From Thermoanaerobaculia bacterium (GTDB lineage: Bacteria > Acidobacteriota > Thermoanaerobaculia > Multivoradales > JAGPDF01): a stretch of DNA of 64,000 nt. Under the pieces are notes generated by a model that was not told where the DNA came from, searched no databases, and saw nothing but the letters and a program-made list of their open reading frames with translations. Positions 14,874-61,456 of the stretch are shown here, piece by piece; position 1 is the first letter of the stretch, and each line of letters opens with the position of its first letter. Location: contig OY969426.1 in the NCBI GenBank assembly GCA_963699245.1, positions 1,326,316-1,390,315 of the forward strand, read 5' to 3'. A program made the translations under genes and the position numbers.

Positions 14874-16123
14874 CTACTTCGCGACGGCGGCAAGAATCTC
14901 GTCGAGCTGCGCGAGTCCCTGCCGCAGGTCGTCGAGCTCGACCACGAGCGGCGGAGCCAGGAAGAGAAGATTCTGCGACGCGGCGAGGTGGAGTCCTTCG
15001 GCGAGGGCGCGCTGCTTGATCGCTGCCGCGGCGAAGCCTTCGTCGAACTCGACGCAGCCGTAGAGACCGCGCGAGCGGACGTCGCGAATCGCCGGATGGC
15101 GCCGTGCCGCCGCCGCGAGCCACTCGGCGAGCAGCGCGGCGGCGGGGCGCGAGCGCGCCAGCAGGTCGCCGTCGGCGAAGGCGCGCAGGTTTCCTTCGAG
15201 CGCCGCCAGCGCCAGCGGATGCGCGGTGTGGGTGAGGCCGGTGACCAGCGCCCGGTCGTCGAAGCGGCGCGCGACGCGCTCGTCGACCGCCACCGCGGCG
15301 AGCGGCGCGTGACCGGAGGTGATCCCCTTGCCCATCGTCACCAGGTCGGGGCGGACGCCGTAGGCCTCGAACGCGAACATCGTGCCGGTGCGGCCGAAGC
15401 CGGTCAGCACCTCGTCGAGGATCAGCAGCGCGCCGTGGCGGTCGCAGAGTTCGCGCACCCGCCGGTAGTAATCGGCGGGGGGAAGTAGGCGCCGCGCGTG
15501 CCGGGCACCGTCTCCATCAGCACCGCGGCGACGCTCTCCGGGCCCGCGGCGTGCAGCGCGCCCTCGACCTCGTCGACGCACGGGCGAGCGCAGACTTCGG
15601 GGCGCGTCCCCCAGGGACAGCGGAAGCAGAAGGGGTCGCGCACCCGCACGACGCCCGGCAGCTTCGGAAAGAGCGGCAGGCCGCGCGGATCGTCGGAGTA
15701 CGACAGCGCGCCGAGCGTCGCGCCATGGTACGAGCGCTGGCGCGCCAGGACCTTGCTGCGGCCGGTGGCGAGCATGGCGATCTTGATCGCGTGCTCGTTG
15801 GCGTCGGCGCCGCCGAGAGTGAAGAGGATGCGGTCGAGGCCGGGCGGCAGGACCGCGGCGAGGGCGCGGGCGGCGCGCTCGCGCACCGCCGGCTCCATCG
15901 CGGGGCCGGCGACCGCCAGGGTGTCGATCTGCGCGCGCAGCGCGGCGAGGATCGCCGGATGCTGCCAGCCAGCGTTGGCGCTGAAGACGACCGAGGCGAG
16001 ATCGAAGAAGCGGCGCCCCTCGTCGTCCCAGAACCAGGCGCCTTCGCCGCCGGCGACGCGGATCGGCGACAGGGCGGCTTGCGCCGTCCAGGTGAAGAGG
16101 GAATGCCGTTCGGGAGTGACCAA
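14874..16123 (-). CDS. Class III (omega/acetylornithine-type) PLP aminotransferase, with an apparent frameshift in the assembly
   Basis: The N-terminal part in frame of ORF 15422..17698 (…FFDLASVVFSANAGWQHP…) and the C-terminal part in ORF 14874..15581 (…LLILDEVLTGFGRTG…TMGKG…) join at a G6 run (15477-15482). Adding one base restores …GAYFPPADYYRRVRELCD…. The TTG start is at 16123. Confidence 0.65.
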
Positions 16124-16149
16124 GGGCTCGCTCGCGCGCTCGCCGGGGG

Positions 16150-17698
16150 TCAGCTGCGCACGACCGTCTGGCTCTGCTCGCGCAGGAACTGCTGCACGTA
16201 GTAGGGGCCGCAGCCTCCCTTGCCGGTCGAGCCCGAGGCCTTCCAGCCGCAGAACGACTGCACGCCCGGCCAGGCGCCGGTGGTGGCGCCGGTGGCGCGG
16301 TTGGCGTAGCAGACGCCGGCCTCGATGCGGTCGAAGAAGTCCTCGATCTCGTGCTCGTCCTCGCTGAAGATGCCGGCGGTCAGCCCGTACTCGCTCTTGT
16401 TGGCGCGCGCGATCGCCTCGTCGAAACCGGCGACCTTGACCACCGACAGGAAGGGCACGAAGAGCTCGTCGCGCAGCAGGCGGGAGCCCTCGGGCAGCCG
16501 GTCGACCACCGCCGGGCGCACGAACCAGCCGGGCGGCAGCCCCGGCGGCAGCGGCTCGCTGCCGGTCAGGATGCGGCCGCTCCGGCGCGCCTCGCCGAGC
16601 GCCTCGCGCCAGGTGCGCACCGCGCGCTCGTTGATCAGCGGGCCGAGGTAGGTGTCGCGCTCCGCCGGGTCGCCGATCACGAAGCCGCGCACCGTCTCGA
16701 CCAGCCGCTCGAGGAACTCGTCGTAGACCGCGGCCTCGACGAAGACGCGCGAGCAGGCGCTGCACTTCTGGCCGCCGTAGCCGACCGCCGAGCGCGCCAC
16801 GCCGGAGGCCGCCTTGGCGAGGTCGGCGCGCGCGGTGACGATCGCCGGGTTCTTGCCACCCAGCTCGGCGATCACCGGCTTCGGGTACTCCTTCCAGAAG
16901 CCGCGCAGGAGCTGGAAGCCGACCTCGCTTCGAGCCGGTGAAGACGAGGCCGTCGAAGCCGAGGTCGAGGAAGGCGCGGCCGAGCGTGGCGCCCGATCCG
17001 GTGACCAGGTTGAAGACCCCCGGCGGAAGGAACTCGCCGAGGATCTCGGCGAGGCGGAGGCCGGTCAGCGAGGCGTCCTCCGCCGGCTTGAAGACCACCG
17101 TGTTGCCGCCGGCGAGGGCGCCCGCCGACATGCCGGCGGCGAGCGCCAGCGGGAAGTTGAACGGCGCGATGACCCCCCAGACGCCGAGCGGGCGCAGCAC
17201 CGAGCGGGTCTCTTCGCCCGGGAGGAGCTTGCCCAGCGGGCGCACGAAGCCGTCGGCGTCCTCGACCTGCTGGCAGTAGTAGCGCAGCAGGTCGGCGGCC
17301 TCCTCGGCGTCGCCCCAGGCTTCGAGGCGGTTCTTGCCGACTTCGAGCGTCATCAGCCCGGCCAACTCGGCGGCGCGCTGCGAGATGCGGTCGGCGGCCT
17401 CGCGCAGCTTGGCGATGCGATAGCGCCAGCTCGTCGCCGCCCACCCCGGATAGGCCGCCCGCGCCGCTTCGAGCGCGCGCCGCACGTCCGACGGCGCGCC
17501 CGCCGCGAAGCGCCCGACGAGCAGCGTCGGGTCGGTCGGCGAGCGGTCGTCGTGCCGCAGGCCGCGCCAGGGCTCGGCCTTGCCGCCGATGAGCAGGCCG
17601 TGCGCGCCGCCGAGGGCGGTGCGCGCCGTCTGCAGGCCCCCCTCGTAGGCGGCGTTCGCTTCGGCGTTGCCGGCCATCGTCACGTAGGTGATCTTCAT
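16150..17698 (-). CDS. NAD(P)-dependent aldehyde dehydrogenase, with an apparent frameshift in the assembly
   Basis: The N-terminal part (MKITYVTMAGN…GLVFTGS) is in ORF 15422..17698 and the C-terminal part (…VIAELGGKNPAIV…GQKCSACSRV…) in ORF 16150..16875. They join by -1 at about 16929, giving FTGSSEVGFQLLRGFWKEYPKPVIAELGGK. Confidence 0.7.
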
Positions 17699-17723
17699 GC
17701 GCCATCCTCTCCGTGCGCCGCGC

Positions 17724-26732: not shown

Positions 26733-27337
26733 CGATAGAGGGCGTACTTCGTCACGAATGCTAGCACCCGCGGATCGAGCCAGCCGTCGGGCAGCGGCTC
26801 GCCGGAGCGCAGGCGGCGGCGGATCTCGGTCGCCGATGCGGGATGCGGAACCGCGCTCACCCAGGTGAGGCGGGTGCGGCCGATCGCGGCGGTGAGCGCC
26901 GGCGCGAGGGTCGGCGCGACGTGCGTCCACTCCCAGCCCGGCCGGACGACGACGCCGAGCTCGGTGGTGGCAAGGATCTCCTCCCAGCGCCGCCAGGTGT
27001 CGAAGAGCGCGAGCGAATCGGCACCGACGATCATCACCAGCTCGTCCGCCGGCCGCTCGGCGCGGAAGCGCTCGAGCGTCTCGATCGAGTAGACCGGGCG
27101 GCCGAGCGCCAGCTCGGCGTCGGAGACCAGGAGACCTGGCTCGTCGAGGAGCGCGATCTCCGCCATCGCGTAACGCGCCAGGGCCGGTGCCAGCTCGCGC
27201 CCCGGCTTGTGGGGCGGGCGCGCGGTCGGGAGGAAGACGACCTGGTCGAGCCGCAGCGCGGCGCGCGCGGCGCGCGCCACCGCGAGGTGACCGAGGTGAA
27301 TCGGGTCGAAGCTGCCGCCGAAGAGGCCGACTCTCAC
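26729..27337 (-). CDS. nadD: Nicotinate-nucleotide adenylyltransferase
   Basis: [18 protein letters not shown]…[12 protein letters not shown]…. Confidence 0.85.
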
Positions 27338-28337
27338 GGCGCCGCCTCGTCGAGCCGCCGGCCGAGCTCCGCGATCAGGGCGTCGACCCCTTCTCCGGTC
27401 GCCGAGCTGATCTCGAAGTACGGGAGCTTGCAGCGTTTCGCCACCTGGCGGAGCTCCTTCCGGCGATCGTCGCGCGCCGAGTCGAGCTTCGAGCCGACGA
27501 GAAGCCGCTGGCGTTCGAGCAGCTCCGGCTCGAAGGCGCCGAGCTCCTTCTCGACGACCTCGAAATCGTCTCGTGCCGAGCCTTCGAAGGACGAGAGATC
27601 CACCAGGTGGAGCAGGACGCGGCAGCGCTCGACGTGCTTGAGGAACTGGATGCCGAGGCCGGCGCCCTGCGCCGCGCCGGCGATCAGCCCCGGCAGGTCG
27701 GCGATGACGAACGGGCGCTCGAGGTTCGGGCGCGCGACGACGCCGAGCTGCGGCACCAGCGTGGTGAACGGGTAGTCGGCGATCTTCGGCTTCGCCGCCG
27801 AGACGACGGAGATCAGGGTGGACTTGCCGGCGTTGGGGAGGCCGACGACGCCGACGTCGGCGAGCAGCTTGAGCTCGAGCCGGAGGCGTTTCTCCTCTCC
27901 CTCGTTACCGGGATAGGCCTTGCGCGGCGCCTGGTTGGTCGGTGTCGCGAAGTGCTGGTTCCCCCAGCCGCCGCGCCCCCCTTGGCGACCACCAGGCGCT
28001 CGCCGTCGGCGAGGATCTCGCCGAGCAGCCGGTCGTCCTCGGTGTCGTAGATGACGGTGCCGAGCGGCACCGGCACCTCGAGATCCTCGCCGGCGCGGCC
28101 ATGCCGATTGGCGCCGAGACCGTGCTGGCCCCGTCCCGCCGGGTAGATCGACTGGAACTGCAGGTGGTAGAGGGTGTTCTTGCGCGCTTCACCGACCAGC
28201 ACGACGGATCCGCCGTGGCCGCCGTCGCCGCCGGACGGGCCGCCGCGCGGCACGAACTTCTCGCGCCGGAAGGCGACACATCCATTGCCCCCGCGTCCTC
28301 CTCGGACGTGGAGAGCTGCTTCGTCGATGAACTGCAC
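27334..28337 (-). CDS. obg: GTPase Obg/CgtA, with one apparent frameshift in the assembly
   Basis: The N-terminal Obg fold ([43 protein letters not shown]…LVVAKGG) is in ORF 27813..28337. The GTPase domain (…[52 protein letters not shown]…PQLGVVARP…) is in the frame of ORF 27334..27756. The break is in the C6 run at 27976-27981; adding one base gives [12 protein letters not shown]. obg is essential, so this is almost certainly an assembly error. Confidence 0.85.
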
Positions 28338-33402: not shown

Positions 33403-35020
33403 ATGCACTTGTGGAGGGGGGTCGGGTGCGGCCTGATACTGGCCGCGGCCTCGGCGTGCGCGCGCTCGGGCGCGCCCGCGCGCGGCTCCTGCCACGCCCC
33501 CGATCGTCATCGCTTCGACGGTGCGACCTGGCCGGCGTCAATCCGCTCGTCGCGACGGGCACGCGATTCAGCCACGAGGTCCTGGACCTGCTCTTCCCCG
33601 AGCTCCTCGCCGAGAGCGCGGGATCGCTGGACCAGCCGCCGAGTTTCGCTCCCGCTCTCGCCGAGAGCTGGGATCTCTCGTCCGATCGCCGGCGTCTTCT
33701 GGTGCGGCTGCGCGAAGGACTGCGCTGGAGCGACGGCGATCCGGTGACGGCGCGCGACGTCGTCTTCACCCACCGCGCCGAGACCGACGGCGACGTCGCC
33801 TGGCCCTACTCGGATTCCAAGGCGGGCATCGAGGAAGTCCGGGCGATCGACGACCGCACGGTTCTCTTCCGGCTCCGGCCCGGCGGCGCCTTCGCGCTCG
33901 TCGACGTCAACGACGGCGCCGATCCTTCCCGAGCACGCCTGGGGAACCCTCCCCTTCGCCGAGTGGCGGCGCGGCGGCGACTGGTTCCGCCAGCACCTGG
34001 TCACCGACGGCCCCTTCCGGCTCGCCGCCTGGCACCCGGGCGTCGAGCTGGCGCTGACACCGAACGAGCAGTGGCACGGTCCGGGCCCCGCTGCCGCGGG
34101 TCCGGTCGTCTTCCGCGTCGTGCCCGATCCCGCCGCGCTCGTCGAGCAGCTGCTCGCCGGCGCATTCGACTTCGCCGACGGCCTCACGCCGCTCGACGCC
34201 GAGCGGGTGGCGCGCAGCCCGCGTCTCCGCCTGGTGGTGGGCGAGGCGCGCCAGTACGACTACATCGCCTGGAACCTGCGCCGGGCGCCCTTCGACGACC
34301 CGCTCGTGCGCCGCGCCCTGACCCTCGCGATCGACCGCCAGTTGCTGGTCGACGCGCTCTGGCGCGGCCGCGCCCGCGTCGCCGCCGGCCCGGTGCCGGC
34401 TCCCTTCTGGGCCCGCGACCCCGAGCTCGCGCCCTGGCCGTGCGATCCGCAGGAGGCGCGGCGGCTGCTCGCCGAGCGCGGCTTCGCCGATCGCGACGGC
34501 GACGGCATCGTCGAGCGCGACGGACGACCGTTCCGCTTCGAGCTGCTGACCAACGCCGGGCAATCGCGTCCGCGCCGACGCCCTGGTGCTGATCCAGGAG
34601 CAGCTCCGCCGCGTCGGCGTCGAAGTGGTGCCGCGCACGCTCGAGATCCAGGCGTTGACCGAGCGCAATCTCGGCGGCGACTACGACGCCACGCTCGCCG
34701 GCTGGGCGGTCGACACCACGCTCGACTTCCGGCCCTACTTCCACTCGCGCGAGATCGCGGACGGCTGGAACTTCACCGCCTACGCCAGCCCCGAAGCCGA
34801 TCGCCTGCTCGACGAAGCCGCCGGCGCCGCCACTCCCGAGGCCATGCGCCCGGCGCTGATCGGGTTGCAGCGCCTGCTCCACCGCGACCAGCCCTACACC
34901 TTCCTCTGGGAGCCGCCGCGCCTGGCGGCGGCGCGCCGCGAGCTCACCGGCGTCGAGATCTCCCCGCTCTCCGCGCTCGCCGGCCTGCCCCGCTGGCGCC
35001 GGAGCGCCGGCGGCAGCTGA
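33403..35020 (+). CDS. ABC transporter substrate-binding lipoprotein, family 5 (peptide/nickel type), with at least 3 apparent frameshifts
   Basis: Lipoprotein signal MHLWRGVGCGLILAAASAC (ORF 33403..). It continues in frames of ORFs 33411.., 34120.. and 34586.. (…LVRLREGLRWSDGDPVTARDVVFT…, …QYDYIAWNLRRAPFDDPLVRRALTLAIDRQ…, …VLIQEQLRRVGVEVV…). Frame changes occur near 33500, 33925 and 34570. Confidence 0.7.
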
Positions 35021-35023: not shown

Positions 35024-35999
35024 GTGGCGCGCTTCTTCGTCCGTCGCGGCATCGCCGCGCTCGCCGTCGTCTGGGTCGTGGTGAGCGCCACCTTCCTGCT
35101 GCTGCAGGCCCTGCCGGGCGGTCCCGGCGCGCTGGCGGAGGACCCGCGCGTGCCGGTCACCCAGCGCGCGCGGATGCGCGCCGCGCTCGGCCTCGACGCG
35201 CCGCTCGCCGCGCGCTATTTCCGTTTCCTCTCCGCCGCCGCGCGGGGCGACTGGGGCGTCTCTTTCGCCACGCAGCGTCCGGTGCGCGCGCTGCTCGCCG
35301 AGGCCGCGCCGCCGACCCTGGCGCTCGCCGCCGCGGCGCTCGCGCTCGAGCTCGCCGTCGGCGTGCCGCTCGGAGCGCTGGCCGCGCGCCGCGCCGGCAG
35401 GACCTTCGATCACCTGCTGCGTGCGGCATCGCTCTTCGCTCTGGTCGCTGCCCTCGTTCTGGCTCGGGCTCCTCCTGCTGATCCTCTTCGCCCTGCGCTG
35501 GCCGCTCTTTCCCGCCGGCGGCGTGGCGGGAGACGACGCCAACCTCGCCACGCTCCTCCGCCATCTCGCTCTCCCCGCCGCCGCGCTCGGCCTCCCCGCC
35601 GCGGCGGCAACGGCGCGCCACGTCCGCTCGCTGGTGCGTCGACGCCGGCGCCGAGCCATGGCTCCACGCGGCGCGCGCGCGCGGCCTCGGCGAGCGGTCG
35701 CTCCTCCTCCGCCACCTGCTGCGCCGTCGAGCGCGCCGCTCGTCGAGCTGGCGGGGCTCTCGGCCGCGGCGCTGCTGTCCGGCGCCCTCGCCGTCGAGGT
35801 CGTCTTCGCGCGGCCGGGGGTGGGGCGCCTGGTCTGCGACGCGCTCGCGGCCCGCGACTATCCCGTGCTGCTCGCGGGCAGCGCCGTCGCCGCCGTCGCG
35901 GTGGTCGCCACGAGCTTCGCCACCGATCTCCTCCAGGCGGCGCTCGATCCGCGCCAGCGGCGTTCGATCCATGACGACGATGCGCCGCAGCCCGGCTGA
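35024..35999 (+). CDS. ABC transporter permease (DppB/OppB-like), with at least 3 apparent frameshifts
   Basis: MARFFVRRGIAALAVVWVVVSATFLLLQALPGGP… in ORF 35024..; …SLPSFWLGLLLLILFALRWPLFPAGG… and …ELAGLSAAALLSGALAVEVVFARPGVGRLVCDALAARDYPVLLAGS…DLLQAALDPRQRR in other frames. Confidence 0.65.
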
Positions 36000-36952
36000 G
36001 CTGCGCTGGGGCGCGGCCCTTCTGCTGCTGCTCGCCGGCGCCGTCACGCTGGGGGCGGCGCTCGACGCCGCCGATCCCGACACGACTCTCGATCCGGCGG
36101 TCGCCGCTTTCGCGCCCCCCGGCGCCCGATTCGCGACGCTGACGCTCACCGACGGACGGCGTCTCGCCGCCACGGCCATCGAGCGGCAGGACGGGTCCTG
36201 GGTGCTGATCGGTCCCGGCGCGCCACGCTCGATCCCGCTTACCGCTGCCGCCGGGCCGCCGCGCTCGCAGACCGCCTGGCTGGGCACCGATCGCTTCGGC
36301 CGCGACCTCGCAGCCCGCCTGCTGCACGGCGGCCGTCTCTCGCTGGCAGTGGCGCTGGCAGCAGTCGCGCTCTCGGTCGGCGGCGGGCTGCCGTTCGGCA
36401 TCGCCGCCGGCCTCGCGCACGGGCGGCGAGGCCGGGCGCTCCTCGCCCTGCTCGAAGGCGCCCAGGCCTTTCCACGCCTCTTCCTCGTCGTCGCGCTCGC
36501 CGCCGTCGTGCCGCCGGGACGCGGCACCACGGTGCTGCTGCTCGGCCTGACCGGCTGGATGCCGGTGGCGCGTCTCGTGCGCGCCGAGACCCGGCGCCTC
36601 GTCGCGAGCGAGTTCGTGCTCGCGGCGCGCGCCGGCGGCGTCGGGCCGCTGCGCCTGGCGTGGAGCCACCTGCTTCCGAACCTCGCCGGCGCCGTCGCCG
36701 TCGAGGCGTCGCTCGGCATGGCCGGCGCGGTGGCGGGCGAAGCGGCGCTCTCCTTCCTCGGCCTCGGGGCGCCCCCTCCCGTCTCTTCCTGGGGCGGGCT
36801 GATCGCCGACGGGCGCGACGCGCTCGTGATCGCTCCCTGGATCTCGCTCGCTCCCGGCCTCGCCCTGGCGCTCGCCGTTCTCGCCTTCAACCTGGTCGCC
36901 GAGGGAGCACGCGAACGCTTCGACCCGCGCAGCCGTTCGCCTCCCGGGCTAG
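35971..36952 (+). CDS. ABC transporter permease (DppC/OppC-like); the 3' end is unresolved because there is no in-frame stop before queA
   Basis: …WLGTDRFGRDLAARLLHGGRLSLAVAL…ASEFVLAARAGGVGPLRLAWSHLLPNLAGAV…ISLAPGLALALAVLAFNLVAEGARERFDPR. A TAG at 36950-36952 is in the +2 frame. Confidence 0.6.
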
Positions 36953-36963
36953 GCTTGCCGCGC

Positions 36964-37995
36964 TTGCGCGTCGCCGACTTCGACTTCGAGCTCCCCGCCG
37001 ATCGCATCGCCCAGTTCGCGGCGCCGCGCGGCGAGAGCCGCCTGCTGGTCGTCGACGCCGCGGGCGGCGCGCGCCATCGCCGGATCGGCGACCTGCCGGA
37101 GCTGCTGCGCCCGGGCGACCTGCTGGTCGTCAACGACACGCGCGTCCTGCCGGCGCGCCTCTTCGCCCGGCGCGCGCCCGGCGGCGGCGAGGTCGAGATC
37201 CTGCTGGTCGAGAAGACCGGCGAGACGACCTGGGACTGCCTGGCGAAGCCGGGACGCAAGGCGCGCCCCGGAACGCAGCTCGTCTTCTCGCCGGAGCTGT
37301 CGGCGGAGGTCGTCGCCAAGCGCGAGGACGGTCGCCATCGCCTCCGCTTCTCGGGCGCGGTCGAGCCCCATCTCGCAACGCTCGGCCACGTCCCGCTCCC
37401 TCCCTACGTCGACCGCCCCGACGAAGCCGCCGATCGCGAGCGCTACCAGACGCTCTTCGCGCGCGAGCCGGGAGCGATCGCCGCGCCGACCGCCGGCCTG
37501 CACTTCTCGGAGACGCTGCTCGCGGCGCTCGCCGCGCGGGGCGTCGGGCGCGCCGCCATCACCCTGCACGTCGGCATCGGCACCTTCAAGCCGGTGACCG
37601 CCGAGCTGGTGCACGAGCACCGCATGGAGCGCGAGCGCTACGCGATCTCGCCCGCCACGGCGGCGGCGATCGCGCGCGCCCGCCGCGACGGGGGACGCAT
37701 CGTCGCGGTCGGCACCACCGTGGTCCGCACGCTCGAGAGCGTCGCCGCCGAACACGAGGGCGAGGTGGTGGCGGAAACGGGCGCGACGGCGCTCTTCATC
37801 ACTCCCGGCTTCCGATTTCGCGTCGTCGATCTTCTGCTGACCAACTTCCACCTGCCGCGCTCGACGCTGCTCATGCTGGTCGCCGCTTTCGCCGGCAGGG
37901 AGCGCGTCCTCGCCGCCTACCGCGAAGCGATCGAGGCCGGCTACCGCTTCTACTCGTACGGCGACGCGATGCTGCTCGAGCGGCGGGAAAGCTGA
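36964..37995 (+). CDS. queA: S-adenosylmethionine:tRNA ribosyltransferase-isomerase
   Basis: TTG start LRVADFDFELPADRIAQFAAP… (compare E. coli MRVTDFSFELPE…); …GLHFSETLL…HVGIGTFKPV…TTVVRTLE…. Confidence 0.8.
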   Translation: MRVADFDFELPADRIAQFAAPRGESRLLVVDAAGGARHRRIGDLPELLRPGDLLVVNDTRVLPARLFARRAPGGGEVEILLVEKTGETTWDCLAKPGRKARPGTQLVFSPELSAEVVAKREDGRHRLRFSGAVEPHLATLGHVPLPPYVDRPDEAADRERYQTLFAREPGAIAAPTAGLHFSETLLAALAARGVGRAAITLHVGIGTFKPVTAELVHEHRMERERYAISPATAAAIARARRDGGRIVAVGTTVVRTLESVAAEHEGEVVAETGATALFITPGFRFRVVDLLLTNFHLPRSTLLMLVAAFAGRERVLAAYREAIEAGYRFYSYGDAMLLERRES

Positions 37996-37996
37996 G

Positions 37997-39409: not shown

Positions 39410-41028
39410 TTCGCCCCCCCGCCGCCGACGACGAAGTAGAGATCGAGCGTGCCGCGTCCTCCGATCGCCCCTTTCGCGGGAGGCGTGGTGACCGCCAGAT
39501 CGCTGCGGCGATCGCCGTCGAGATCGATGACGCGGACCAGCGCGAGATCCGCCGGCTCGTCGGCGAGCTCGAGCTTCGCGCTCCCCGCCTGCGGGAAGAG
39601 ACAGCCAGGCCGCCCGAATCGGACGCTCACCTCGCGGCCGCGTCCGAGCTGGAGAAAGTCCGCCCGTCCGTCGCCGTCGAAGTCTCCGCCGAACGACGAG
39701 AGCTGGCCGAGGCGCAGCCGGTCGAGGCGCAGCGTGAACTTGCCGCCGAGGTCCTGTCCCTCGACGCCGCGAAAGGAGCCGTCGGCGTTCTGGCAGTAAG
39801 GCTGGAAGTCGAGACCGAGCCGCAGCGAGCGCGCCGCGACGACGCGCAGGAGCTGGAACATCGAGAGATCGAGCCGCAGCGCCACCAGATCGACCCGGCC
39901 GTCGCCGTCGAGATCGGCGATGCCGGCCGGCAGGCCGAGCGCTTCCCCGCCGCCGCCGAAAACGTGGCCGGCGAGCTCGAAGGTGCGGCGCGGCTGGGGA
40001 TTCCAGACCAGGTCGGCCGTCAGCGCGTGCACGCGATAGCGCGCGCGGGGGGCGCGCGCTTCCTCCACGCCTTCACGCATCGACTCGTCCTTCCCGGACA
40101 GCTCCTCGCGGGTGACGAGCTCGGCGCGGCCGTCGCCGTCGAGATCGCCGAGCCAGACCACCTCGGGCTCGGCGTCGCGCGGCCGGCCGGCGAGCGGATC
40201 GATCGCCGGCGCGAAGCGCCCGCCGCCCAGGTTGCGCGCCACGCGCAGGCCGTTCAGGCCGCGCTCGTGCTCGCGGAAGACGAGCTCGGGCAGATGGTCG
40301 CCGTCGAGGTCGATCGCCTGCGGCAGCGGAAGCTGGCGCCGCGTCTCCTCGCGGTAGTGCCGCGCGTCGCCCGGCACCCGCTCCTCGAGCGCGTAGGGGA
40401 CGACCGCCGCCGGAGCCGGCGCGAGGCTCCCGCCCGCGCCGAGATGGACTTCGAGGCCCGCCTCCACCGGCAGCAGCAGGTCGCGCTCGCCGTCGGCGTC
40501 GAGGTCCGGCGTCAGCGGCAGGTCGGGCAGGAGGCTGGCGCTGCCGGCCAGCGGCGACGGCGCCGCGAGCCGGGGAGCCAGCGCGAGGGTGCCGTCGACC
40601 AGCGCCACCGCCGAGATTCCGTCGTCGGTCCAGGCGAGCAGCGGCTCGGCGGACGGCCCCGGCAGCAGCGCGTGGACGCTCTCGGGCAGCTCGAGCGTCC
40701 AGGGGGCGGCGGCGAATACGCCGCCCGGCTCGCCGCGATGGACGGCGAGGAGGCGCCGGTCGAGCAGCGCGGGGACGACCGTGAGAACGTCGACATAGGC
40801 GCCGGCGTCGTCCACGCGCTGGCTCTCGTCGACGCCGATCTCCCCCCAGTCGGTTGCCGCCAGCACGGTGACGAGATCGGCGACCCCGTCGCGGTCGACG
40901 TCGGCGGTGAAGAGAGCCGCGGGAGCGCCCGCCAGCTCGAGCCGTTGATGATGGAATTCGAGGCCCCGTGCCGGGCCCACAAGTCCCGCGGCGAGGAGGA
41001 CGAACGGTCCGAGGAGGCGGCGGAGCAC
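39406..41028 (-). CDS. Secreted FG-GAP/VCBS-repeat protein
   Basis: Signal peptide MLRRLLGPFVLLAAGLVGPARG. There are multiple D-x-D-G-D-G repeats (DVDRDGVADL, DLDGDGRAEL, DLDGDGRVDL, DFDGDGRADF, DLDGDRRSDL) typical of integrin-alpha-like beta-propeller blades. Confidence 0.7.
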   Translation of the reverse strand: MLRRLLGPFVLLAAGLVGPARGLEFHHQRLELAGAPAALFTADVDRDGVADLVTVLAATDWGEIGVDESQRVDDAGAYVDVLTVVPALLDRRLLAVHRGEPGGVFAAAPWTLELPESVHALLPGPSAEPLLAWTDDGISAVALVDGTLALAPRLAAPSPLAGSASLLPDLPLTPDLDADGERDLLLPVEAGLEVHLGAGGSLAPAPAAVVPYALEERVPGDARHYREETRRQLPLPQAIDLDGDHLPELVFREHERGLNGLRVARNLGGGRFAPAIDPLAGRPRDAEPEVVWLGDLDGDGRAELVTREELSGKDESMREGVEEARAPRARYRVHALTADLVWNPQPRRTFELAGHVFGGGGEALGLPAGIADLDGDGRVDLVALRLDLSMFQLLRVVAARSLRLGLDFQPYCQNADGSFRGVEGQDLGGKFTLRLDRLRLGQLSSFGGDFDGDGRADFLQLGRGREVSVRFGRPGCLFPQAGSAKLELADEPADLALVRVIDLDGDRRSDLAVTTPPAKGAIGGRGTLDLYFVVGGGGAK

Positions 41029-41035
41029 AGCCCTC

Positions 41036-43165: not shown

Positions 43166-46074
<2,909 letters not shown>

Positions 46075-46496: not shown

Positions 46497-47597
46497 CTAT
46501 CTGGCTCGTTTGTAGAAAGGAAGCGCTGCGACGCGTGCCGGCACGGCCTTGCCGCGCACGTCGATCTCGATCCCGGTGCCGACGGCCGCGAGCGCGGTCT
46601 CGACGTAGGCCATGCCGAGCGCCTTCTCGAAAGTCGGACTGAAGGTGCCGCTGGTGACGAAACCGGCGTCGCGCCCGCCGTGCAGGATCCGGTGCCCTTG
46701 CCGCGCGATGCCGCGCCCGGTCGACCTCGAAGCCGACCAGCCGCCGCTCGAGGCCGCTCTCGCGCGCCGCGTGGAGCGCTTCGCGGCCGACGAAATCGCC
46801 CTTGTCCATCTTGACGATCCAGTCGAGGCCGGCCTCCCAGGGCGTCGTCGTGCGGTCGATCTCGTGCCCGTAGAGCGCCATGCCCGCCTCGAGGCGCAGC
46901 GTGTCGCGCGCGCCGAGGCCGGCCGGCACCAGCCCGACCGCGGCGCCCGCCGCGAGCAGGCCGTCCCACACCCCGGCCGCATCCTGCGGCGCGAGGTAGA
47001 GCTCGAAGCCGTCTTCGCCGGTGTAGCCGGTGCGGGAGAAGATCGCCTCTCTCCCCGATCACCTTGCCGCGCGCGAAGTGGTAGTAGCGGATCGCATCGA
47101 GCGGCGTCGAGGTCAGCGGCTGGAGGATGCCGACCGCGCGCGGCCCCTGCAGGGCGACGAGCGCGTAGTCGTCCGAGACATTCTCGAGCTCGACGTCCAT
47201 GCGCGGCTGCGCCAGCACCCAGGCGAAATCCCCCTCGAGATTCGCCGGCGTTGACCACGAGCATGAACTCGTCCGCCGCCATGCGGTAGACGAGGAGGTC
47301 GTCGACGAAGGTGCCGTCGGGGGTGAGCAGCGCGCTGTAGTGGGCGCGGCCGGGGGTCAGCTTGGAGGCGTCGTTGGGAGTGAGCTGCTGCACGAAAGCG
47401 AGGGCGTTCTCGCCCCTGACCCGGAACTCGCCCATGTGGGAGACGTCGAAGAGGCCGGCCGCGGTGCGCACCGCGCGGTGCTCCTCGATCAGGCCCGTGT
47501 ACTGCACGGGCATCTCCCAGCCGCCGAACTCGACCATGCGGGCGCCGGCGGCGACGTGCCGGTCGTAGAGAGGGGTGCGACGAAGAGGCTCCGACAT
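46497..47597 (-). CDS. gcvT: Glycine cleavage system T protein (aminomethyltransferase), with several apparent frameshifts
   Basis: [33 protein letters not shown]…; middle …[36 protein letters not shown]…; C-terminal …[21 protein letters not shown]…, spread across three frames. Confidence 0.75.
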
Positions 47598-47754: not shown

Positions 47755-49568
<1,814 letters not shown>

Positions 49569-49592
49569 GCGCCGCGAGAAACGAGAGATCCC

Positions 49593-50982
49593 ATGGCCCA
49601 CTGCGACTGCCAGACCACCCGCCGCGGCTTCGTGGTCGGCTGCTCGGCCGCCATCGCCAGCCTCGCCGGCTCGCGATTCAACTCGCTCGCCTTCGCCCAG
49701 CACGCGGCACCGTCAACGACGAGATCCTCGTGGTGCTCTTCCTGCGCGGCGGCCAGGACGGCCTGAACCTCGTCGTGCCGGTCGCCGGCAACGACCGCGC
49801 CGCCTACCAGGCCCTGCGCGCCCAACCTGCAGATCCCCGCCGCGCAGCTCTCGCCCTACCGCTCGGCACGCATGGCGGGGGCCAACGGCTCGTAGCTCGG
49901 CATCCACCCCGCGGCGGCGCCGCTGCACGAGCTCTTCCAGGCCGGCAAGCTGGCTCGTCGGTCGTCGGCTGCGGCATGGCGGCGAACGAACGCAGCCACT
50001 TCGACTCGATGGACTGGATGGAGCTCGGCACGCCCGGGCGTCAATCGACCGCCACCGGCTGGCTCACCCGCCACCTGCAGTCGGCCTCGAACCTGCCCGC
50101 CGACATCCTGATGCCGTCGCTCTCGGTCGGCGGCATGCAGGCGATGTCGCTGCTCGGCAGCTACGAGACGATCAACCTGTCGAGCCCCTACGACTTCGCG
50201 CTCTACACCGGACCCTGGGCTGGCGCAGACCGACCAGCGCCAGGCGCTGCGCAATCTGGTCGAAGGGGACACCACCTGGCTGCACCAGACGAGCCTGAAG
50301 GCGCTCGACGCGGTCGACATCGTCGAGCTCTACGCGAGCGGCGACTACGTCCCGTCGGGCGGCGTCGTCTATCCGGGCACCTGGTTCGGCGACAACCTGC
50401 AGACCATCGCGCAGATGATCAAGCTCGACCTCGGCCTGCGCATCGCGACGCTCGACCTCGGCGGGTGGGACCACCACGAGAACCAGGACGCGATCTTTAC
50501 GCCTCGCTCGCCGACGAGCTCGCGCAGCGGCCTGCAGCGCCCTCTGGACGGACCTCGACGGCGCGGCGCCGTCAACTACACGCAGCAGCTGACCGTCGTG
50601 GTGATGAGCGAGTTCGGCCGCCGCGTCTGCGAGAACGCCGACCGCGGCACCGACCACGGCCACGGCAACAACATGTTCGTGCTCTCGGGCAACGCGATCG
50701 GCGGCCTGCACGGCACCTGGCCCGGGCTGGCGCCGGCGCAGCTCGACAGACGGCGACGTCGAGGTCACCACCGACTTCCGGCGGGTGCTCTCCGAGATCG
50801 TCGTCCGCCGTCTGGGCAACTCCCGCCTCGACCTCGTCTTTCCCGGCTACAGCGGCTATCAGCCACTCGGCGTGGTGCAGGGCGCCCTGGCGACCCCTCC
50901 GTCGCCGCCGCCGTCGAACCTTCTCTTCCGGGACGGCTTCGAGGGGGGCGACAGCGCCGCCTGGAGCATCTCGACGCCCTGA
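49593..50982 (+). CDS. DUF1501-family protein with a twin-arginine signal, heavily frameshifted in the assembly
   Basis: MAHCDCQTTRRGFVVGCSAAIASLAGSRF (Tat motif); …ILVVLFLRGGQDGLNLVVP…, …LDLGGWDHHENQ…, …MSEFGRRVCENADRGTDHGHGNNMFVLSG… and …VVRRLGNSRLDLVFPGY… lie in different frames. It is adjacent to the DUF1800 gene, the usual partner. Confidence 0.55.
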
Positions 50983-50985
50983 GCG

Positions 50986-51699
50986 TCAGGGCTTGCCGTC
51001 GGGGAGGACCAGCCCGACCGGCGGCAGGCTCTCGCCGCCGGCGTCGAGCAGGTCGATGACATCGGCCTGACGGCGCAGCTCGGCGGTCCAGCGGTCGATC
51101 TCGCTGTCGAGGCGCTCCTCGCGCAACACGGCGCGGATCGACTCGCGGATCTCGTCGATCGGCGGCACCGGCTCGCCGGCGGCCTCGAGCTTCGGCACCA
51201 GGACCTCGTCGTAGTACTTGCGGATCTCCTCGATGCCGACGAAGACGCGCGGCCCGAGACGCTGCTCGACGTAGGCGAGCACCGAGAGCTGACGCGCCAG
51301 GATCTGGCGCACCTCGGCCTCCGTCGAGCCCGAGCCGGGCCAGCTCGGCCTGCCAGGCGCGCTCGTCGGCGAAGCGCGAGCGCAGCCGCTCGAGCTGGCG
51401 GTCGACCTCCTCGAGCGGCGCGTCCTCGAAGCCGAAGCGGGCGATCTCGTGCAGCCGCAGCTTCTGTTCGATCAGGGCGTCGAGCGCCCGCCGCTCGAGC
51501 GCGGCGTCCTCCTCGCCGGGCTGGCGCGGCACGAGGCCGAGGCCGATCGCGCGCTCGAGGTCCGAGAGCAGGATCGGATCCTCGTCGACCACCGCCACGA
51601 CGCGGTCGACCAGCGTCGTCTTGCGACCGGCTCGGTGGCCGCCACGGCAGGAGCGACGGCCAGTCCGACGAGGAGCAGGATCAGGGCGCGGCGCCGCAT
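50986..51699 (-). CDS. Periplasmic SurA-N-domain-like chaperone, frameshifted
   Basis: Signal peptide MRRRALILLLVGLAVAPAVAA, then …VDRVVAVVDEDPILLSDLERAIGLGL… and …VRQILARQLSVLAYVEQRLGPRVF…EIRKYYDE… in two further frames. Confidence 0.5.
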
Positions 51700-51765
51700 C
51701 GTCGCCGCATTGTACGGCCCCGATCGCCGCCGGCGGCGGCGGCGCCGGTGCTACCATCCGCCCCG

Positions 51766-52606
51766 ATGAGCGCGCCGCAAACCGCCATCCGCGTCGGCCT
51801 GGCGCAGATCGATGCCCGCCTGGGCGACGTCGAGGCGAACCTCGAGAAGCACCTGGCGTGGATCGCGCGCGCTCGGAGCGAGGGGGTCGAGCTGCTGCTC
51901 TTCCCCGAGCTCTCGCTCACCGGCTACCGTCTCCTGCACCTGACGCCGCGAGTGGCGCTCCAGCCGGCGACCTCGCCGGTCATCGCCCAGCTCGCCGAGG
52001 CCGCGAACGGCATGTCGGTCGTCGTCGGCTGCGTCGAAGAGGACGAGCGCGGGTTCCTCTTCAACAGCGCGCTGCTGCTCGCAGGAGGGCCGGCTGGCGC
52101 TCACCCACCGCAAGCTCTACCTCCCCACCTACGGCATCTTCCAGGAGGGGCGCTTCTTCAGCGAAGGGAGCCGGCTGGCCCTGCCGCGCATCGCCGGCCA
52201 TCCATTCGGCCTGCTGATCTGCGAGGACTTCTGGCACTCCGATCCGGCCGAGCGGCTGGCGCGCGCCGGCGCCAAGCTGATCGCGCTCGTCTCGGCCGCG
52301 CCCGGCCGCGTCGGCTCCGAGGCGATGCCGCCCTCGCAGGAAGCCTGGGAGTCGCTGACCCGCGCCTCGGCGCTGCTCAACACCTGCTGGATCCTCTACT
52401 GCGGCCGGGTCGGCTGGGAGGAGGGGACCTTCTACACCGGCGGCAGCCACATCGTGCGCCCCGGCGGCGAGGTGCTCGCCCGCGCCCCCTATCTCGACGA
52501 GCACCTGCTGGTCGCCGACATCGACCTGCGCGAGGTCGACCGCCTGCGGTGGCGCCTGCCGATCCTCGCCGCCGAGCGCAACGACATCACGGGACCCGAG
52601 GAGTGA
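51766..52606 (+). CDS. Carbon-nitrogen hydrolase (nitrilase superfamily), frameshifted; probably the glutaminase partner of NadE
   Basis: MSAPQTAIRVGLAQIDARLGDVEANLEKHLAWIARARSEGVELLLFPELSLTGY…; the C-terminal part is in ORF 52325..52606. Confidence 0.6.
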
Positions 52607-52613: not shown

Positions 52614-53451
52614 GTGATCCGCCGCGAAGAGGTCGCCGCGCGCCTGCGCCTGAACGCCGACCTCGCCGTCGACACGCTGGCGCACTTCCTGCGCGACGGC
52701 GTCGAGCAGGCCGGCGCCCAGGGCCTGGTCGTCGGGCTGTCGGGAGGAGTCGACTCGGCGCTCGCCGCCGCGCTGGCGGTGAAAGCGCTCGGGGCGCCGC
52801 GCGTTCACGCTTTCTTCCTGCCCTACCGCGAATCGAATCCGCTGTCGCGCACGCGACGCCGAGGCGGTCGCCGCGAAACTCGGCCTGGCGCTGCGGACGA
52901 TCGATCTCACGCCGCAGATCGACGCCTACTTCGCGACCGCCGAGCCCGACGCCGACCGCGTGCGGCGCGGCAACAAGATGGCGCGCGAGCGCATGGCGAT
53001 CCTCTTCGACCAGGCGAAGAAGCTCGGCTGCCTGGTGCTCGGCACCTCCAACAAGACCGAGATCCTGCTCGGCTACTCCACCGTCTTCGGCGACAACGCC
53101 TCGTCGCTCAACCCGAACGGGGACCTCTGGAAGGGGCAGGTCTGGCAGCTCGCCGAGCACCTCGGCATCCCGGACTCGGTGCTGCGCAAGAAGCCCTCGG
53201 CCGATCTCTGGCCCGGCCAGACCTCGGAGGGGGAGCTCGGCTTTCTCTACGCGATCGCCGACGAGGTGCTCTACCTGATGTTCGAGCTCGGCCTGCTGCC
53301 GGAGGAGATCGTCGAGCGCGGCTACCCGGCCGAGATCGTCGGCGAGATCGTCCGCCGCGAGAAGCAGAACCGCTACAAGCGACGGCTGATGCTGATCGCG
53401 CGCCTCTCCAACTCCGCCGTCAACCTCGACCGCGAGATTCCGCGCGACTGA
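52614..53451 (+). CDS. nadE: NAD+ synthetase, with one apparent frameshift
   Basis: …GLVVGLSGGVDSALAAALAVKALG… (PP-loop) in ORF 52614..; …MAILFDQAKKLGCLVLGTSNKTEILLGYSTVFGD… in ORF 52960..53451. Confidence 0.75.
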
Positions 53452-54343: not shown

Positions 54344-55371
54344 TCAGCTCGCGGCGAAGAGCCCCGAGTTCCGCTGCTCGAGATCGAGCAGGAAGCGCTT
54401 GCGCCAGAGCCCGCCGCCGTAGCCGCCGAGCTCGCCGCCCTTGTTGACCACCCGGTGGCAGGGGATGACGATGGCGATCCGGTTGCGCCCGTTGGCCTGG
54501 CCGACGGCGCGCGAACCGCCCGGGCGGCCGACGGCGCGCGCCAGGTCCTCGTAAGACCGGGTCTCGCCGTAGGGGATCCGGCGCAGCTCCCCCCAGACCG
54601 ATTCCTCGAACTGGCGTCCCCGGCTCGTCGAGCGGCAGGTCGAAGTCGCGCCGCCTTCCTGCGAAGTACTCGACGAGCTGCGCGCTTGGCGCGCTCGATC
54701 ATGCTTGTTGGTACCCGGCACCAGCGGCCGAGCCAAGCCGCTTGCGCAGCGTCGTCGAGCTGCGTCTCGAGCGCGCGCCGGTCGGTGAACTCGAGCAGCG
54801 CGACCCCCGCTCGGTCGGCGCCGAGCAGCAGCGGCCCGACCGGGCTTTCGACCCAGGCGACGCGCACGCAGTCGGCCTCCTTCGCCTTGCCGGGAGCGGC
54901 GCCGAAGGTCTTCGCGAATGCCTCGCGGAAGCCGCTCGCCGATTCGTAGCCGGCGTCCCAGCCGGCGTCCTCGGGGCGCTCGCCGCGACGGATCAGCTCG
55001 AGCGCGCCCCCCAAGCGGCGGGCGCGGCGATAGGCGTGAAAGGTCATGCCGTACTCCTTCTGGAAGAAGCGGCGCACCCGCGCCGGCTCGATGCCGCGCT
55101 GGCGCAGCTCGGTGTCGTTGAGACGGACCGACGGATCGCGCTCGATCTCGGAGAGCAGCCCCGCCACCCACTCTGGCGGCCGGCCGTCGGTGTCGAGCGG
55201 CCGGCAGCGCTTGCAGGGACGGAAGCCGGCGAACAGCGCCTCTTTCGGCGTCGGGTAGTAGACGACGTTCTCCGGCTTCGGCTTCTTCGCCGGGCAGGAG
55301 GGGCGGCAGAAGATGCCGGTGGTCTTGACCGCGAGGAAGAAGACGCCGTCGTAGGAGGCGTCGCGCGCCAT
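54344..55371 (-). CDS. ada: Bifunctional Ada-type regulator / O6-methylguanine-DNA methyltransferase, frameshifted
   Basis: The N-terminal part (MARDASYDGVFFLAVKTTGIFCRPSCPAKKPKPENV… with AraC HTH) is in ORF 53743..55371. The C-terminal MGMT domain (…IPYGETRSYEDLARAVG…VIPCHRVVNKGGELGGYGGG…) is in ORF 54344..56080. Confidence 0.7.
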
Positions 55372-55498
55372 CGCTGGCGCGCTCCATCTCGCGCTGCGTG
55401 GGGAGGGGAGCGTTCATGCGGTGAACCCGTATTCTGCTCCCGGCCGGCACTGCCACCGATTTTCGGACATCAAATCCGCCGCCTGTAGGATCGCGAAC

Positions 55499-58940: not shown

Positions 58941-58969
58941 CCGCGACGCCCTCTCGTCCCGGGCCTGGG

Positions 58970-61456
58970 TTGCTGGCGGCCTTGACGCTGGCGCTGGCGA
59001 CGGCCGCCGCGGCGGGACCGCCCCCCATTCCCCCCGATCTGCCGGCGGAGTACCGCCAGTGGCTCGAGGAGGTCGAGCCGATCCTCTCGCCCGCCGAGCG
59101 CGCGGCCTTCCTCAAGCTCGAGAAGGACTACCAGCGCGACGCTTTCATCGAGAAGTTCTGGCAGGTGCGCGACCCCTACCCGGACACGGCGCGCAACGAG
59201 GCGCGCGACGCCTGGGAGTCGCGCCTCGCCCAGGCGCGGGAGGAGTTCCCCAGCCTCGACGAGGAGCGGGCGCGGCTCTTCCTGCTCAACGGCCCCCCGA
59301 CCGCACGGCTCAAGGCGAGGTGCACCTCGCTCTGGCCGATGGACGTCTGGGCCTATGCGCCGACCGAGCGCATTCCCGAGCCGCTGGTGCTGATCTTCGT
59401 GCAGCGCTTCGGGCAGGGGCGCTATTCGCTCTGGGTCCCGCAGGAGGGGCTCGCCGCGCTCTTCCAGTTCGCGCCGCCCGACGGTCGCCAACGACCGGCT
59501 GCTGCAGGAGATCGCGGACGGCTGCAGCCAGACCAACGGGCTGGCGGGCGCCATCGCCTCGGTGATGCGACAGCAGCAGATGCACTACACCCTGCTCGTC
59601 TCGCGCGCCGAGCGGCCGGTGGAGCCCCCCTCGCGCGAGTGGGTGGCGACCTTCAACTCCTATTCGACCGACCTCGCCGCCGGCGTGCCGCCGCTCCCCG
59701 CCGAGCTCGGCGTGAGCTTCCCCGGCCGCCGCCAGAACCGGACGATCGTGCAGGCGACGCTGGCCGTGCCGGCGGCCTCGACCGGCGTCGCCGCGCTCGA
59801 GGGGAGCCGCTCCTACAACTTCCTGCTCAACGGCGAGATCCTGCTCGGCAAGAAGCTCTTCGACGCCTTCCGCTACAAGTTCGACCTGCCGGCGGCGAGC
59901 GTCACCACGCCGTCGATCCCGCTCGTCTTCGAGCGCTTCCTCCGCCCCGGCACCTACAAGCTGATCGTCAAGCTCGAGGACCTGAACGGCCACGGCTTCT
60001 TCCGGGAGGAGCGCGTCCTCGAAGTGCCCCAGCTCGGCGACCAGCCGGTGACCGCGACGATCGACGACGAGACCTCGAAGCTGCTCGTCGAGGCCAACGC
60101 CGCGCTCTCGACGCTCGACAACACGATCCAGATCGTCCGCCCGCGCAACGAGATCCAGTCGGGACTGGTGCGCTTCGACACGCTGATCACCGGCAGCGCC
60201 ATCAGCGAAGTCGAGTTCTGGCTCGACGGCCGCTCGATCCTGCGCAAGAACCGGCCGCCCTTCTCGGTCGAGCTCGACCTCGGCGACGTGCCGCGCACGC
60301 GCACGCTGCGCGCCGTCGGCTTCGACGCCGAGGGGCACGATGTGGCCTCCGACGAGGAGCTGCTCAACGCCAGCCCGCACCGCTTCTCCGTCCGGCTGGT
60401 CGAGCCGCGCCGGGGCAAGCGCTACACGCAGAGCCTGCGCGCCGAGGCGAAGGTCGAGCTGCCCGAGGAGGGCACCGTCGAGCGGGTCGAGTTCTACCTC
60501 AACGAAACCCTGGTCTCGACGCTCTACCAGGAGCCCTGGACGCAGCCCGATCCTGCTGCCGCCCGAACGGCGAGATCGCCTACGTGCGCGCCGTCGCCTA
60601 CCTGACCGACGGCAACTCGACCGAGGACCTCGTCTTCGTCAACGCGCCCGACAACCTCGAGGAGCTCGAGATCCAGTTCGTCGAGCTCTTCACCGCCGTT
60701 CTCGACCGCGACCACCGGCCGGCGCCCGGGCTCGAGCGCTCCGACTTCAAGGTCACCGAGGACGGCGTGCCGCAGGAGCTGACGCGGTTCGAGAAGGTCG
60801 AGAGCCTGCCGGTGCACGTCGCCGTGCTGCTCGACACCTCGGCGTCGATGGAGCCCAACCTCACGGCGGCGCGCGACGCCGCCCTGCGCTTCTTCCAGCA
60901 GGTCGTGACGCCCAAGGACCGCGCCGCGCTGATCCCGTTCAACGACCGGCCGTCGCTGGCGGTGAAGATGACCAACCGCCTCGACGACCTCGGCGCCGGG
61001 CTCGCCGGCCTCAAGGCCGAGCGCGGCACGGCGCTCTACGATTCGGTCGTCTTCTCGCTCTTCTACTTCAACGGCATCAAGGGGCAGCGCGCGCTGCTGG
61101 TGCTGTCGGACGGCAAGGACGAGAACAGCAAGTTCCGCTTCGACCAGACGCTCGACTTCGCCCGCCGCGCCGGCGTGGCGATCTACACCATCGGCCTGGA
61201 CATCTCGCGCGGCGAGTTCGAGACCCGGCGGGTGCTCAAGACGCTGGCCGACGAGACCGGCGGGCGCAGCTTCTTCGTCTCCGACGGCGCCGAGCTCCCC
61301 GCGATCTACGACGACATCCAGCGCGAGCTCCGCTCGCGCTACCTGCTCGCCTACCAGTCGACCAACACCGATCGCAGCCTCAAGTTCCGCTCGGTCGAGG
61401 TCAAGGTGGACAAGCCGGGGCTCGAGGCGAAGACGATGCGCGGCTACTACCCCTGA
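58970..61456 (+). CDS. Large secreted protein with a C-terminal VWA domain (TIGR03436-like VWFA-related Acidobacterial family), paralog 1, with two apparent frameshifts
   Basis: Signal peptide MLAALTLALATAAAAG; …FLKLEKDYQRDAFIEKFWQVRDPYPDT…; the middle is in ORF 59562..60605; the C-terminal VWA (…VAVLLDTSASM…LVLSDGKDE…) ends in …TMRGYYP. Frame changes occur near 59490 and 60550. Confidence 0.7.
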   Translation: MLAALTLALATAAAAGPPPIPPDLPAEYRQWLEEVEPILSPAERAAFLKLEKDYQRDAFIEKFWQVRDPYPDTARNEARDAWESRLAQAREEFPSLDEERARLFLLNGPPTARLKARCTSLWPMDVWAYAPTERIPEPLVLIFVQRFGQGRYSLWVPQEGLAALFQFAPPDGRQRPAAAGDRGRLQPDQRAGGRHRLGDATAADALHPARLARRAAGGAPLARVGGDLQLLFDRPRRRRAAAPRRARRELPRPPPEPDDRAGDAGRAGGLDRRRRARGEPLLQLPAQRRDPARQEALRRLPLQVRPAGGERHHAVDPARLRALPPPRHLQADRQARGPERPRLLPGGARPRSAPARRPAGDRDDRRRDLEAARRGQRRALDARQHDPDRPPAQRDPVGTGALRHADHRQRHQRSRVLARRPLDPAQEPAALLGRARPRRRAAHAHAARRRLRRRGARCGLRRGAAQRQPAPLLRPAGRAAPGQALHAEPARRGEGRAARGGHRRAGRVLPQRNPGLDALPGALDAARSCCRPNGEIAYVRAVAYLTDGNSTEDLVFVNAPDNLEELEIQFVELFTAVLDRDHRPAPGLERSDFKVTEDGVPQELTRFEKVESLPVHVAVLLDTSASMEPNLTAARDAALRFFQQVVTPKDRAALIPFNDRPSLAVKMTNRLDDLGAGLAGLKAERGTALYDSVVFSLFYFNGIKGQRALLVLSDGKDENSKFRFDQTLDFARRAGVAIYTIGLDISRGEFETRRVLKTLADETGGRSFFVSDGAELPAIYDDIQRELRSRYLLAYQSTNTDRSLKFRSVEVKVDKPGLEAKTMRGYYP

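Follow-up and report, generated by a model that had tools for sequence, protein, structure and literature searches.

Several described systems interrupt conserved genes with changes of reading frame. Pseudogene-rich genomes, such as those of Mycobacterium leprae and recent host-restricted symbionts, carry many frameshifted conserved genes. Real decay of this kind also brings nonsense substitutions, larger deletions and raised amino acid change, spares essential genes and follows the deletional bias known from real bacterial pseudogenes. Programmed frameshifts, such as those of prfB, dnaX and IS transposases, change the frame by +1 or -1 inside one gene, at a single site per gene, which is conserved among relatives and has a slippery motif. 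Sequencing is another source of frame breaks, and homopolymer length errors are the usual main residual error of long reads. Long-read metagenome-assembled genomes (MAGs) carry frameshift-type indel errors (PMC8103633; PMC12007338), which increase at low coverage (PMC8103633). Furthermore, collapsed alleles with nearby variants were reported to cause indel errors in a diploid eukaryote, where the apparent frameshifts were absent from the individual haplotypes (PMC8445201).

The stretch of DNA analyzed here (the window; 64,000 nucleotides, 72% G+C) is a chromosome segment from a MAG of an uncultured Thermoanaerobaculia bacterium (Acidobacteriota), with ~95% G+C at third codon positions. An SDR protein of the window (P0121) is recorded, at 100% identity, on a single contig of 3,823,457 bases, which points to long reads. 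The source of the window is most likely a long-read MAG. Two cluster mates of the SDR protein are ~95% identical. We located frame breaks with two lines of evidence. Phase switches were detected from composition only, by hidden-Markov (HMM) segmentation on codon-position G+C. Intact orthologues from five relatives (L001, L081, L082, L083 and L084) were aligned to the window gene by gene with frameshift-aware protein-to-DNA alignment. The genes checked were all those named by a first-pass annotation of the window, and pieces of broken genes were matched to curated NCBIfam models. The relatives have ~79%, ~81% and ~88% identity to the window; L083 has ~97.8% at aligned bases, a value for the covered region only.

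Fifteen genes of the window switch reading frame mid-gene. They are given below in window coordinates, together with a conserved non-coding stretch that carries extra bases.

14883-16123, minus strand: class-III aminotransferase; one base missing from the G run at 15477-15482 (plus strand); L082 orthologue, 85% amino acid identity.
16156-17698, minus strand: aldehyde dehydrogenase; one extra base at ~16927, outside a homopolymer; L082 orthologue, 94% amino acid identity.
27337-28337, minus strand: obg (GTPase); one base missing from the C run at 27976-27981 (plus strand); L082 Obg, 91% amino acid identity.
33421-35017, plus strand: family-5 solute-binding protein (SBP_bac_5); extra bases at ~33490 (less certain), 33524, 33921 and 34558; L081 (82%) and L001 (66% amino acid identity).
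35024-35987, plus strand: dppB-like permease; extra bases at ~35438 and ~35640, one missing at ~35723; frameshift-aware alignment.
35980-36963, plus strand: dppC-like permease; body intact, net +1 shift at ~36936-36950; junction aligned to L081 at the DNA level.
43169-46074, minus strand: gcvP; extra bases at ~44456 and ~45351; frameshift-aware alignment.
46500-47597, minus strand: gcvT; extra bases at ~46722, ~47056 and ~47243; frameshift-aware alignment.
47835-49565, plus strand: DUF1800 gene; extra bases at ~48073, 48233, 48476 and 48964, missing bases at 49419 and 49459; L083 DNA alignment, L083 and L084 proteins.
49593-50979, plus strand: DUF1501 gene; 22 indel events, the densest cluster; a 459-residue open frame in L083. 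The 22 include insertions at 49701, 49704, 49820, 49869, 49955, 49959, 50033, 50499, 50501, 50526, 50538, 50557, 50563, 50750 and 50803, and deletions at 49860, 49892-49895, 50045, 50219 and 50808.
50989-51699, minus strand: gene of a small SurA-N-like protein, with extra bases at 51324, 51624 and 51627; SurA_N matches weak, under the curated cut-off.
51766-52603, plus strand: CN-hydrolase gene; a single additional C at 52080.
52614-53448, plus strand: nadE (NAD synthase); one extra base at ~52851; frameshift-aware alignment.
54347-55417, minus strand: ada (methyltransferase/regulator); six extra bases at ~54611, 54684, 54703, 54737, 54753 and 55374; L001 and L081 concur.
55418-55445, no strand: conserved non-coding sequence separating ada from rsmI; carries two extra bases (55429, 55438) against L081 and L084.
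58952-61451, plus strand: VWA paralogue 1 of a tandem two; extra base at ~59480, net shift of -1 at ~60543-60577 (one deletion or two insertions); references L081, L084 and paralogue 2.

Same-strand phase switches were placed by the HMM at, among others, 15470/71, 16927/28, 27967/68, 33520, 33922, 34562, 35419, 35636, 35722, 44454, 45347, 46708, 47049 and 47241, at ~11 sites within 47.9-50.8 kb, and at 51322, 52080, 52853, 54614, 54681, 59482 and 60550. Alignment puts one-base shifts at these sites, and identity is high up to every break. The first-pass annotation had proposed mid-gene frame breaks in the named genes and frameshift-aware alignment as a check. Each site that it listed has an HMM switch at most a few bases away, homology agrees, and the alignment gives one-base shifts there. 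Removing or adding one base recovers the alignment, with 76-94% amino acid identity to L081 or L082 right up to the breaks. Further apparent shifts, in a glycosyltransferase/GFO region (21.5-24.5 kb) and toward the C-terminal ends of FG-GAP and membrane proteins, were set aside as alignment noise, the references there having only 36-54% identity.

Family models place the pieces of the broken genes end to end. The runs of six G (15477-15482) and six C (27976-27981) named in the first-pass annotation are present exactly as described. The G run of the aminotransferase has seven bases in the relative, and the match of the protein's C-terminal piece to family models begins at about position 240. 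In obg, seven bases in place of the window's six put the frame right, and the relative reads AAG GGC GGG at the run, so the run is probably seven bases long in truth. The frame break reported for this gene is evident in TIGR02729 (329 positions), whose positions 1-120 and 123-326 are covered by pieces on two frames, with the break at about position 121. GcvP falls into three contiguous pieces of TIGR00461 (1-213, 217-514 and 516-939 of 939 positions) and GcvT into four of TIGR00528 (1-115, 119-172, 182-288 and 294-362 of 362 positions). Both permease genes had been called broken. This holds for dppB; dppC is sound internally and altered only at its 3' end, where the shift displaces the TAG stop and the open frame therefore continues into queA, giving a fused frame of 663 residues without a stop. 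A seven-codon gap in dppB (~35525-35552) may be real variation or error. The ada gene is indeed broken, by six insertions rather than the two breaks first counted; five of the six lie within 143 bases, a local density of 3.5%.

The same genes are uninterrupted in the relatives. In the more distant L001, L081, L082 and L084, every affected gene is intact with an open frame. In L083, a separate assembly from run ERR10755939, the DUF1800, DUF1501, SurA-like and CN-hydrolase genes are all open. Over 3.9 kb (48.3-52.2 kb), the window and L083 differ by 31 indel events and 84 substitutions, a ratio of 0.37 that far exceeds natural coding divergence. In the CN-hydrolase gene, for example, the final 465 aligned bases are free of mismatches apart from the extra C at 52080. 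L083 is a different strain, ~2% substitutions from the window, so a strain-specific origin of the indels is formally possible.

The catalogue holds ~60 indel events, all of 1-3 bases and mostly of one, about twice the ~28 breaks first estimated. Insertions outnumber deletions by 48 to 11 (p = 1e-6). The uneven density described by the first-pass annotation is confirmed: from 0.16 events per kb at 10.7-33.4 kb (three events) the density rises to 2.35 per kb at 33.4-61.4 kb (57 events; binomial p = 2e-11). The dense part does not form the single block from 33 to 61 kb that had been described: the events lie in patches of ~1-8 kb separated by clean stretches, with patch borders at about 33.4, 36.9, 44.4, 55.5 and 59.4 kb, and the catalogue is empty for 37-44.4 kb and 55.5-59.4 kb. 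The claim that several breaks lie in G/C homopolymers stands for only two of the ~60 events in runs of at least six bases, both contractions of a G/C run from seven to six. The remaining events are mainly single-base insertions at non-repeat sites, and a further 33 G/C runs of 6-7 bases in the window are untouched. Only ~7 of 40 single-base insertions lengthen a run, below the chance expectation of 0.45-0.53, and the inserted base seldom equals its neighbour. The ~60 events are thus not concentrated in homopolymer runs. An insertion-rich, homopolymer-avoiding and patchy signature is atypical for long-read error, and the dominance of insertions and the scarcity of homopolymer sites speak against an artefact.

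Taken together, the frame breaks are very probably errors of the deposited consensus rather than mutations of the organism; we put the probability at about 0.92. The first-pass annotation had reached the same reading, which gains support from the intact relatives, the broken obg and the substitution tests below. In some stretches of the contig the consensus would have retained single-base indels introduced in sequencing, consensus building or polishing. They would comprise two classes: the two classic G/C-run contractions and a much larger, patchy set outside repeats, in which single-base insertions exceed deletions. The window resembles the indel errors of Nanopore and PacBio CLR assemblies in that conserved genes are split into adjacent fragments on different frames and can be restored by frameshift-aware alignment, and in that the source is a single multi-megabase contig. 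Like those errors, which worsen at low coverage, the breaks are unevenly dense along the contig (PMC8103633; PMC12007338). It differs from them in the ~4:1 excess of insertions and in the mostly non-homopolymer sites.

Very recent mass pseudogenisation of the 28-kb region, such as a hypermutator state or relaxed selection might produce, would also break many genes at once, and both the clustering of the events and the strain difference to L083 are compatible with it. Yet the window shares with M. leprae-type decay the frameshifted conserved genes and no other sign. Across the corrected reading paths, one rsmI path excepted, no nonsense substitution was found; of the stops in these paths, two come from 3-base indels (one is a TGA made by a 3-base insertion at 49312 in the DUF1800 gene) and another falls in the N-terminus of DUF1800, where the alignment is poor. 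An outgroup test gave 23 amino acid changes specific to the window and 19 specific to L083, with no excess on the window branch, and the corrected broken genes are as similar to L081 (0.76-0.93 identity) as their intact neighbours (0.76-0.90). No deletion of more than two bases was confirmed in the catalogue, and the indels span no sizes beyond 1-3 bases. The insertion excess is the reverse of the deletional bias of pseudogenes and so counts for an artefact. Furthermore, shifted segments keep their third-position G+C undiminished, and intact and broken genes interleave inside single operons, as with gcvH between gcvP and gcvT. The indels also reach obg, an essential-type GTPase gene (essential in bacteria where tested), and two of them sit in conserved non-coding DNA. 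We regard mass pseudogenisation as highly improbable. Cells might instead read through the breaks, by programmed frameshifting on the ribosome or by slippage in transcription, but most sites lie outside the runs or repeats that permit slippage and one gene carries up to 22 events. The shifts are also not conserved, because in the relatives these proteins are encoded without a frame break, and we give this explanation next to no weight. That the indels are real in any form, as ~60 mostly non-slippage one-base insertions fixed in this strain of a free-living Thermoanaerobaculia bacterium across 15 housekeeping genes including obg, is scarcely credible. It would demand an unknown insertion-generating process combined with extremely recent mass inactivation, or an unknown decoding of the shifted genes.

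Within the reading of consensus error, the patches may mirror conditions that differ from place to place, for instance few reads or the collapse of strain variation. The first-pass annotation had suggested differences in coverage or in strand-specific error along the contig. Drops in long-read depth about as long as a read, where raw errors outlive polishing, are a tentative explanation that we would put somewhat short of an even chance. They would account for the ~1-8 kb patches with clean gaps, and the local density in ada would be close to raw-read error levels; low coverage is known to worsen frameshift errors (PMC8103633). Raw errors should, however, add many homopolymer length changes and substitutions, and neither is in excess. 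The reads of two co-occurring strains ~2% apart could instead have been collapsed, with misaligned variants emitted as extra bases. A strain of this divergence exists (L083), and the rarity of insertions that copy their neighbour looks as if both alleles had been written side by side. The reported indel artefacts of collapsed alleles are tied to nearby variants (PMC8445201), whereas in the window insertions are not significantly enriched beside third codon positions (17 of 21 versus 14 expected) and several have no substitution within 20-500 bases. We consider collapse of strains less likely than not as the source.

The bearing of these breaks on biology is small, and on data quality there is some. 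Gene calls on this contig would yield fragmented or fused proteins, for instance GcvP in three pieces, Obg split and DppC fused to QueA. They would make the genome look less complete than it is and could be taken for pseudogenes or for short novel proteins. The atypical signature may help to identify a particular failure of consensus or polishing once the source pipeline is traced. As a separate observation, judged by eye, insertions that create CpG seem enriched.

The window is 66–77% G+C, with ~95% G+C at third codon positions, which makes the reading frame legible from composition alone. A homology-free, seven-state hidden-Markov segmentation on codon-position G+C yielded ~85 segments, which translate into what look like ordinary protein fragments. 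The segmentation places ~30 same-strand phase switches in 33–61 kb and only three intragenic switches in 0–33 kb (15470/71, 16927/28, and 27967/68), all of them at break sites that the first-pass annotation had proposed. Pfam domains in 0–10.7 kb are full length wherever a domain is found. The third-position signal is weak at 8000–10770, where G+C falls to 0.66, and this stretch may be foreign DNA. Two large minus-strand open frames (7749–9443 and 9077–10570) have no Pfam match.

The nearest species-representative genomes are Thermoanaerobaculia MAGs. One scan of such genomes with a stitched GcvP query identified L001, a locus 79% identical to and syntenic with 33.9–56 kb of the window. A protein search recovered a closer GcvP (88% identity) on a 473-kb JGI contig, from which we took L081 (window 30–61 kb) and L082 (10.7–29 kb); gene calls in both give every gene as a single product. 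A stitched DUF1501 query retrieved L083, a Logan contig (run ERR10755939) from a different strain and an independent assembly that aligns to 48292–52156 with ~97.8% identity at aligned bases. The same search found L084, whose gene order is exactly that of the window, DUF1800 and DUF1501 included.

We ran all orthologues against the window with a purpose-written protein-to-DNA aligner permitting 1- and 2-base shifts. The genes that the first-pass annotation had called broken each change frame where it placed the break, with high protein and DNA identity up to that point; its details hold except in dppC, ada, and the VWA gene. The aligner detects no shift in PFK, HisKA, HSP20, queA, the PMT-like membrane protein, LOG, gcvH, the body of rsmI, the ACT-domain gene, mnmA, iscS, or any gene in 17.7–27.3 kb. 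Obg, GcvP, and GcvT fragments match curated NCBIfam models at consecutive model positions, though no single fragment reaches the family cut-off. The catalogue holds ~60 events, of which 53 are firm and 7 are probable, as follows.

Catalogued indel events, by type and count
One-base insertion: 46
Two-base insertion: 1
Three-base insertion: 1
One-base deletion: 10
Two-base deletion: 1
Net -1 shift of ambiguous make-up: 1

Event density per kb of reference-covered sequence is 0.16 in 10.7–33.4 kb versus 2.35 in 33.4–61.4 kb (p = 2e-11). The events lie in patches at 33.5–36.9, 44.5–47.2, 48.1–52.9, 54.6–55.4, and 59.5–60.6 kb, and the catalogue has none in 37–44.4 or 55.5–59.4 kb. Because the near-identical DNA comparison covers 48.3–52.2 kb only, close compensating pairs are detected there and possibly missed elsewhere. 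The break assigned to dppC is not internal: a net +1 shift just upstream of the stop removes it from frame and yields a dppC-queA fusion frame. The ada gene is indeed broken, but by six insertions, five of which are packed into 143 bases; composition reveals fewer breaks because three +1 events in succession restore the frame. The VWA break near 60550 is present and is made up of either one deletion or two insertions.

Homopolymers, emphasized in the first-pass annotation, explain little. The G6 and C6 runs it named are the sites of the only two deletions in the sparse region, both run contractions: the aminotransferase reads TAC TT CCCCCC GCC in the window versus TAC CTC CCC CCC GCC in a relative, and obg reads GCC AA GGGGGG CGC versus GCC AAG GGC GGG CGC. 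The other 33 of the window's 35 G/C runs of 6–7 bases are unaffected, and nearly all remaining events differ in kind. Bases inserted relative to L083 have unlike neighbours (e.g., A[G]A, G[C]A, C[G]C, C[A]G, and G[T]C), and only ~7/40 single-base insertions copy a neighbour versus 0.45–0.53 under random insertion (p = 1e-5 to 2e-3). Inserted bases track genome composition (G or C in 16/21 in the L083 comparison). By eye, many in 33400–61400 seem to create a CpG, either as a C ahead of a G or as a G following a C, in a background itself CpG-rich. Two insertions fall within a non-coding element at 55420–55465 (…TATTCTGC…CCACCGATTTTC…) that separates ada from the divergent rsmI. The element is conserved in L081 and L084 and might serve in the regulation of ada.

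The frame breaks are almost certainly artefacts of sequencing or assembly. The count of 48 insertions against 11 deletions argues against real decay, as deletional bias is the norm in real bacterial pseudogenes. No stop codon along the corrected frames derives from a substitution, those at 49312 and 49895 being products of 3-base indels, and this too argues against decay. So does amino-acid conservation: with L084 as outgroup, private changes number 23 in the window and 19 in L083, and broken genes, once corrected, give proteins that match their intact neighbours in conservation. Broken genes also alternate with intact ones inside single operons, and they include obg, to our knowledge essential wherever tested; both points weigh against decay. 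The first-pass interpretation of assembly error rather than pseudogenes is supported. The window differs from L083 by 31 indels and 84 substitutions, a ratio that, in our judgement, natural coding divergence is not expected to give. A single NCBI/ENA contig, 3,823,457 bases long, is listed as encoding a protein 100% identical to the window's short-chain dehydrogenase; for a metagenomic contig, such a length points to long-read sequencing. This class of artefact is documented in long-read MAGs and is worse at low coverage (PMC8103633; PMC12007338). There is no biological novelty in the breaks; the use of the finding is as a warning about the quality of this contig.

Local dips in depth would fit the scale of the insertion-rich, homopolymer-avoiding patches, as would collapsed strain variation. 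INDEL errors that arise when divergent alleles collapse into one consensus are documented (PMC8445201). A test of strain collapse, comparing insertion sites with third codon positions, was not significant. Substitutions relative to L083 (48292–52156) are uneven, from 0 in the last 465 bases (the CN-hydrolase gene) to as many as 15 per 200 bases in DUF1501. The outgroup test suggests that this unevenness reflects real strain divergence rather than error. Together with the spread over codon positions 3/1/2 (36/31/17), the unevenness suggests that the DUF1501/DUF1800 pair has recombined or is evolving fast.

This pair (47835–50979) also has the highest error density. In the window, L083, and L084 it separates gcvT from the SurA-like gene, whereas L081 and L001 lack it at that place, a presence/absence difference among close relatives. 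In the window and L001, queA is separated from the gene for the PMT-like membrane protein by two FG-GAP-repeat protein genes (37990–41030), neither with frame breaks; L081 lacks them, and L084 stops short of that junction. A large VWA-domain protein is encoded by two tandem paralogues (58952–63912) that share ~45% identity and similar N-terminal regions, with frame breaks in the first copy only.
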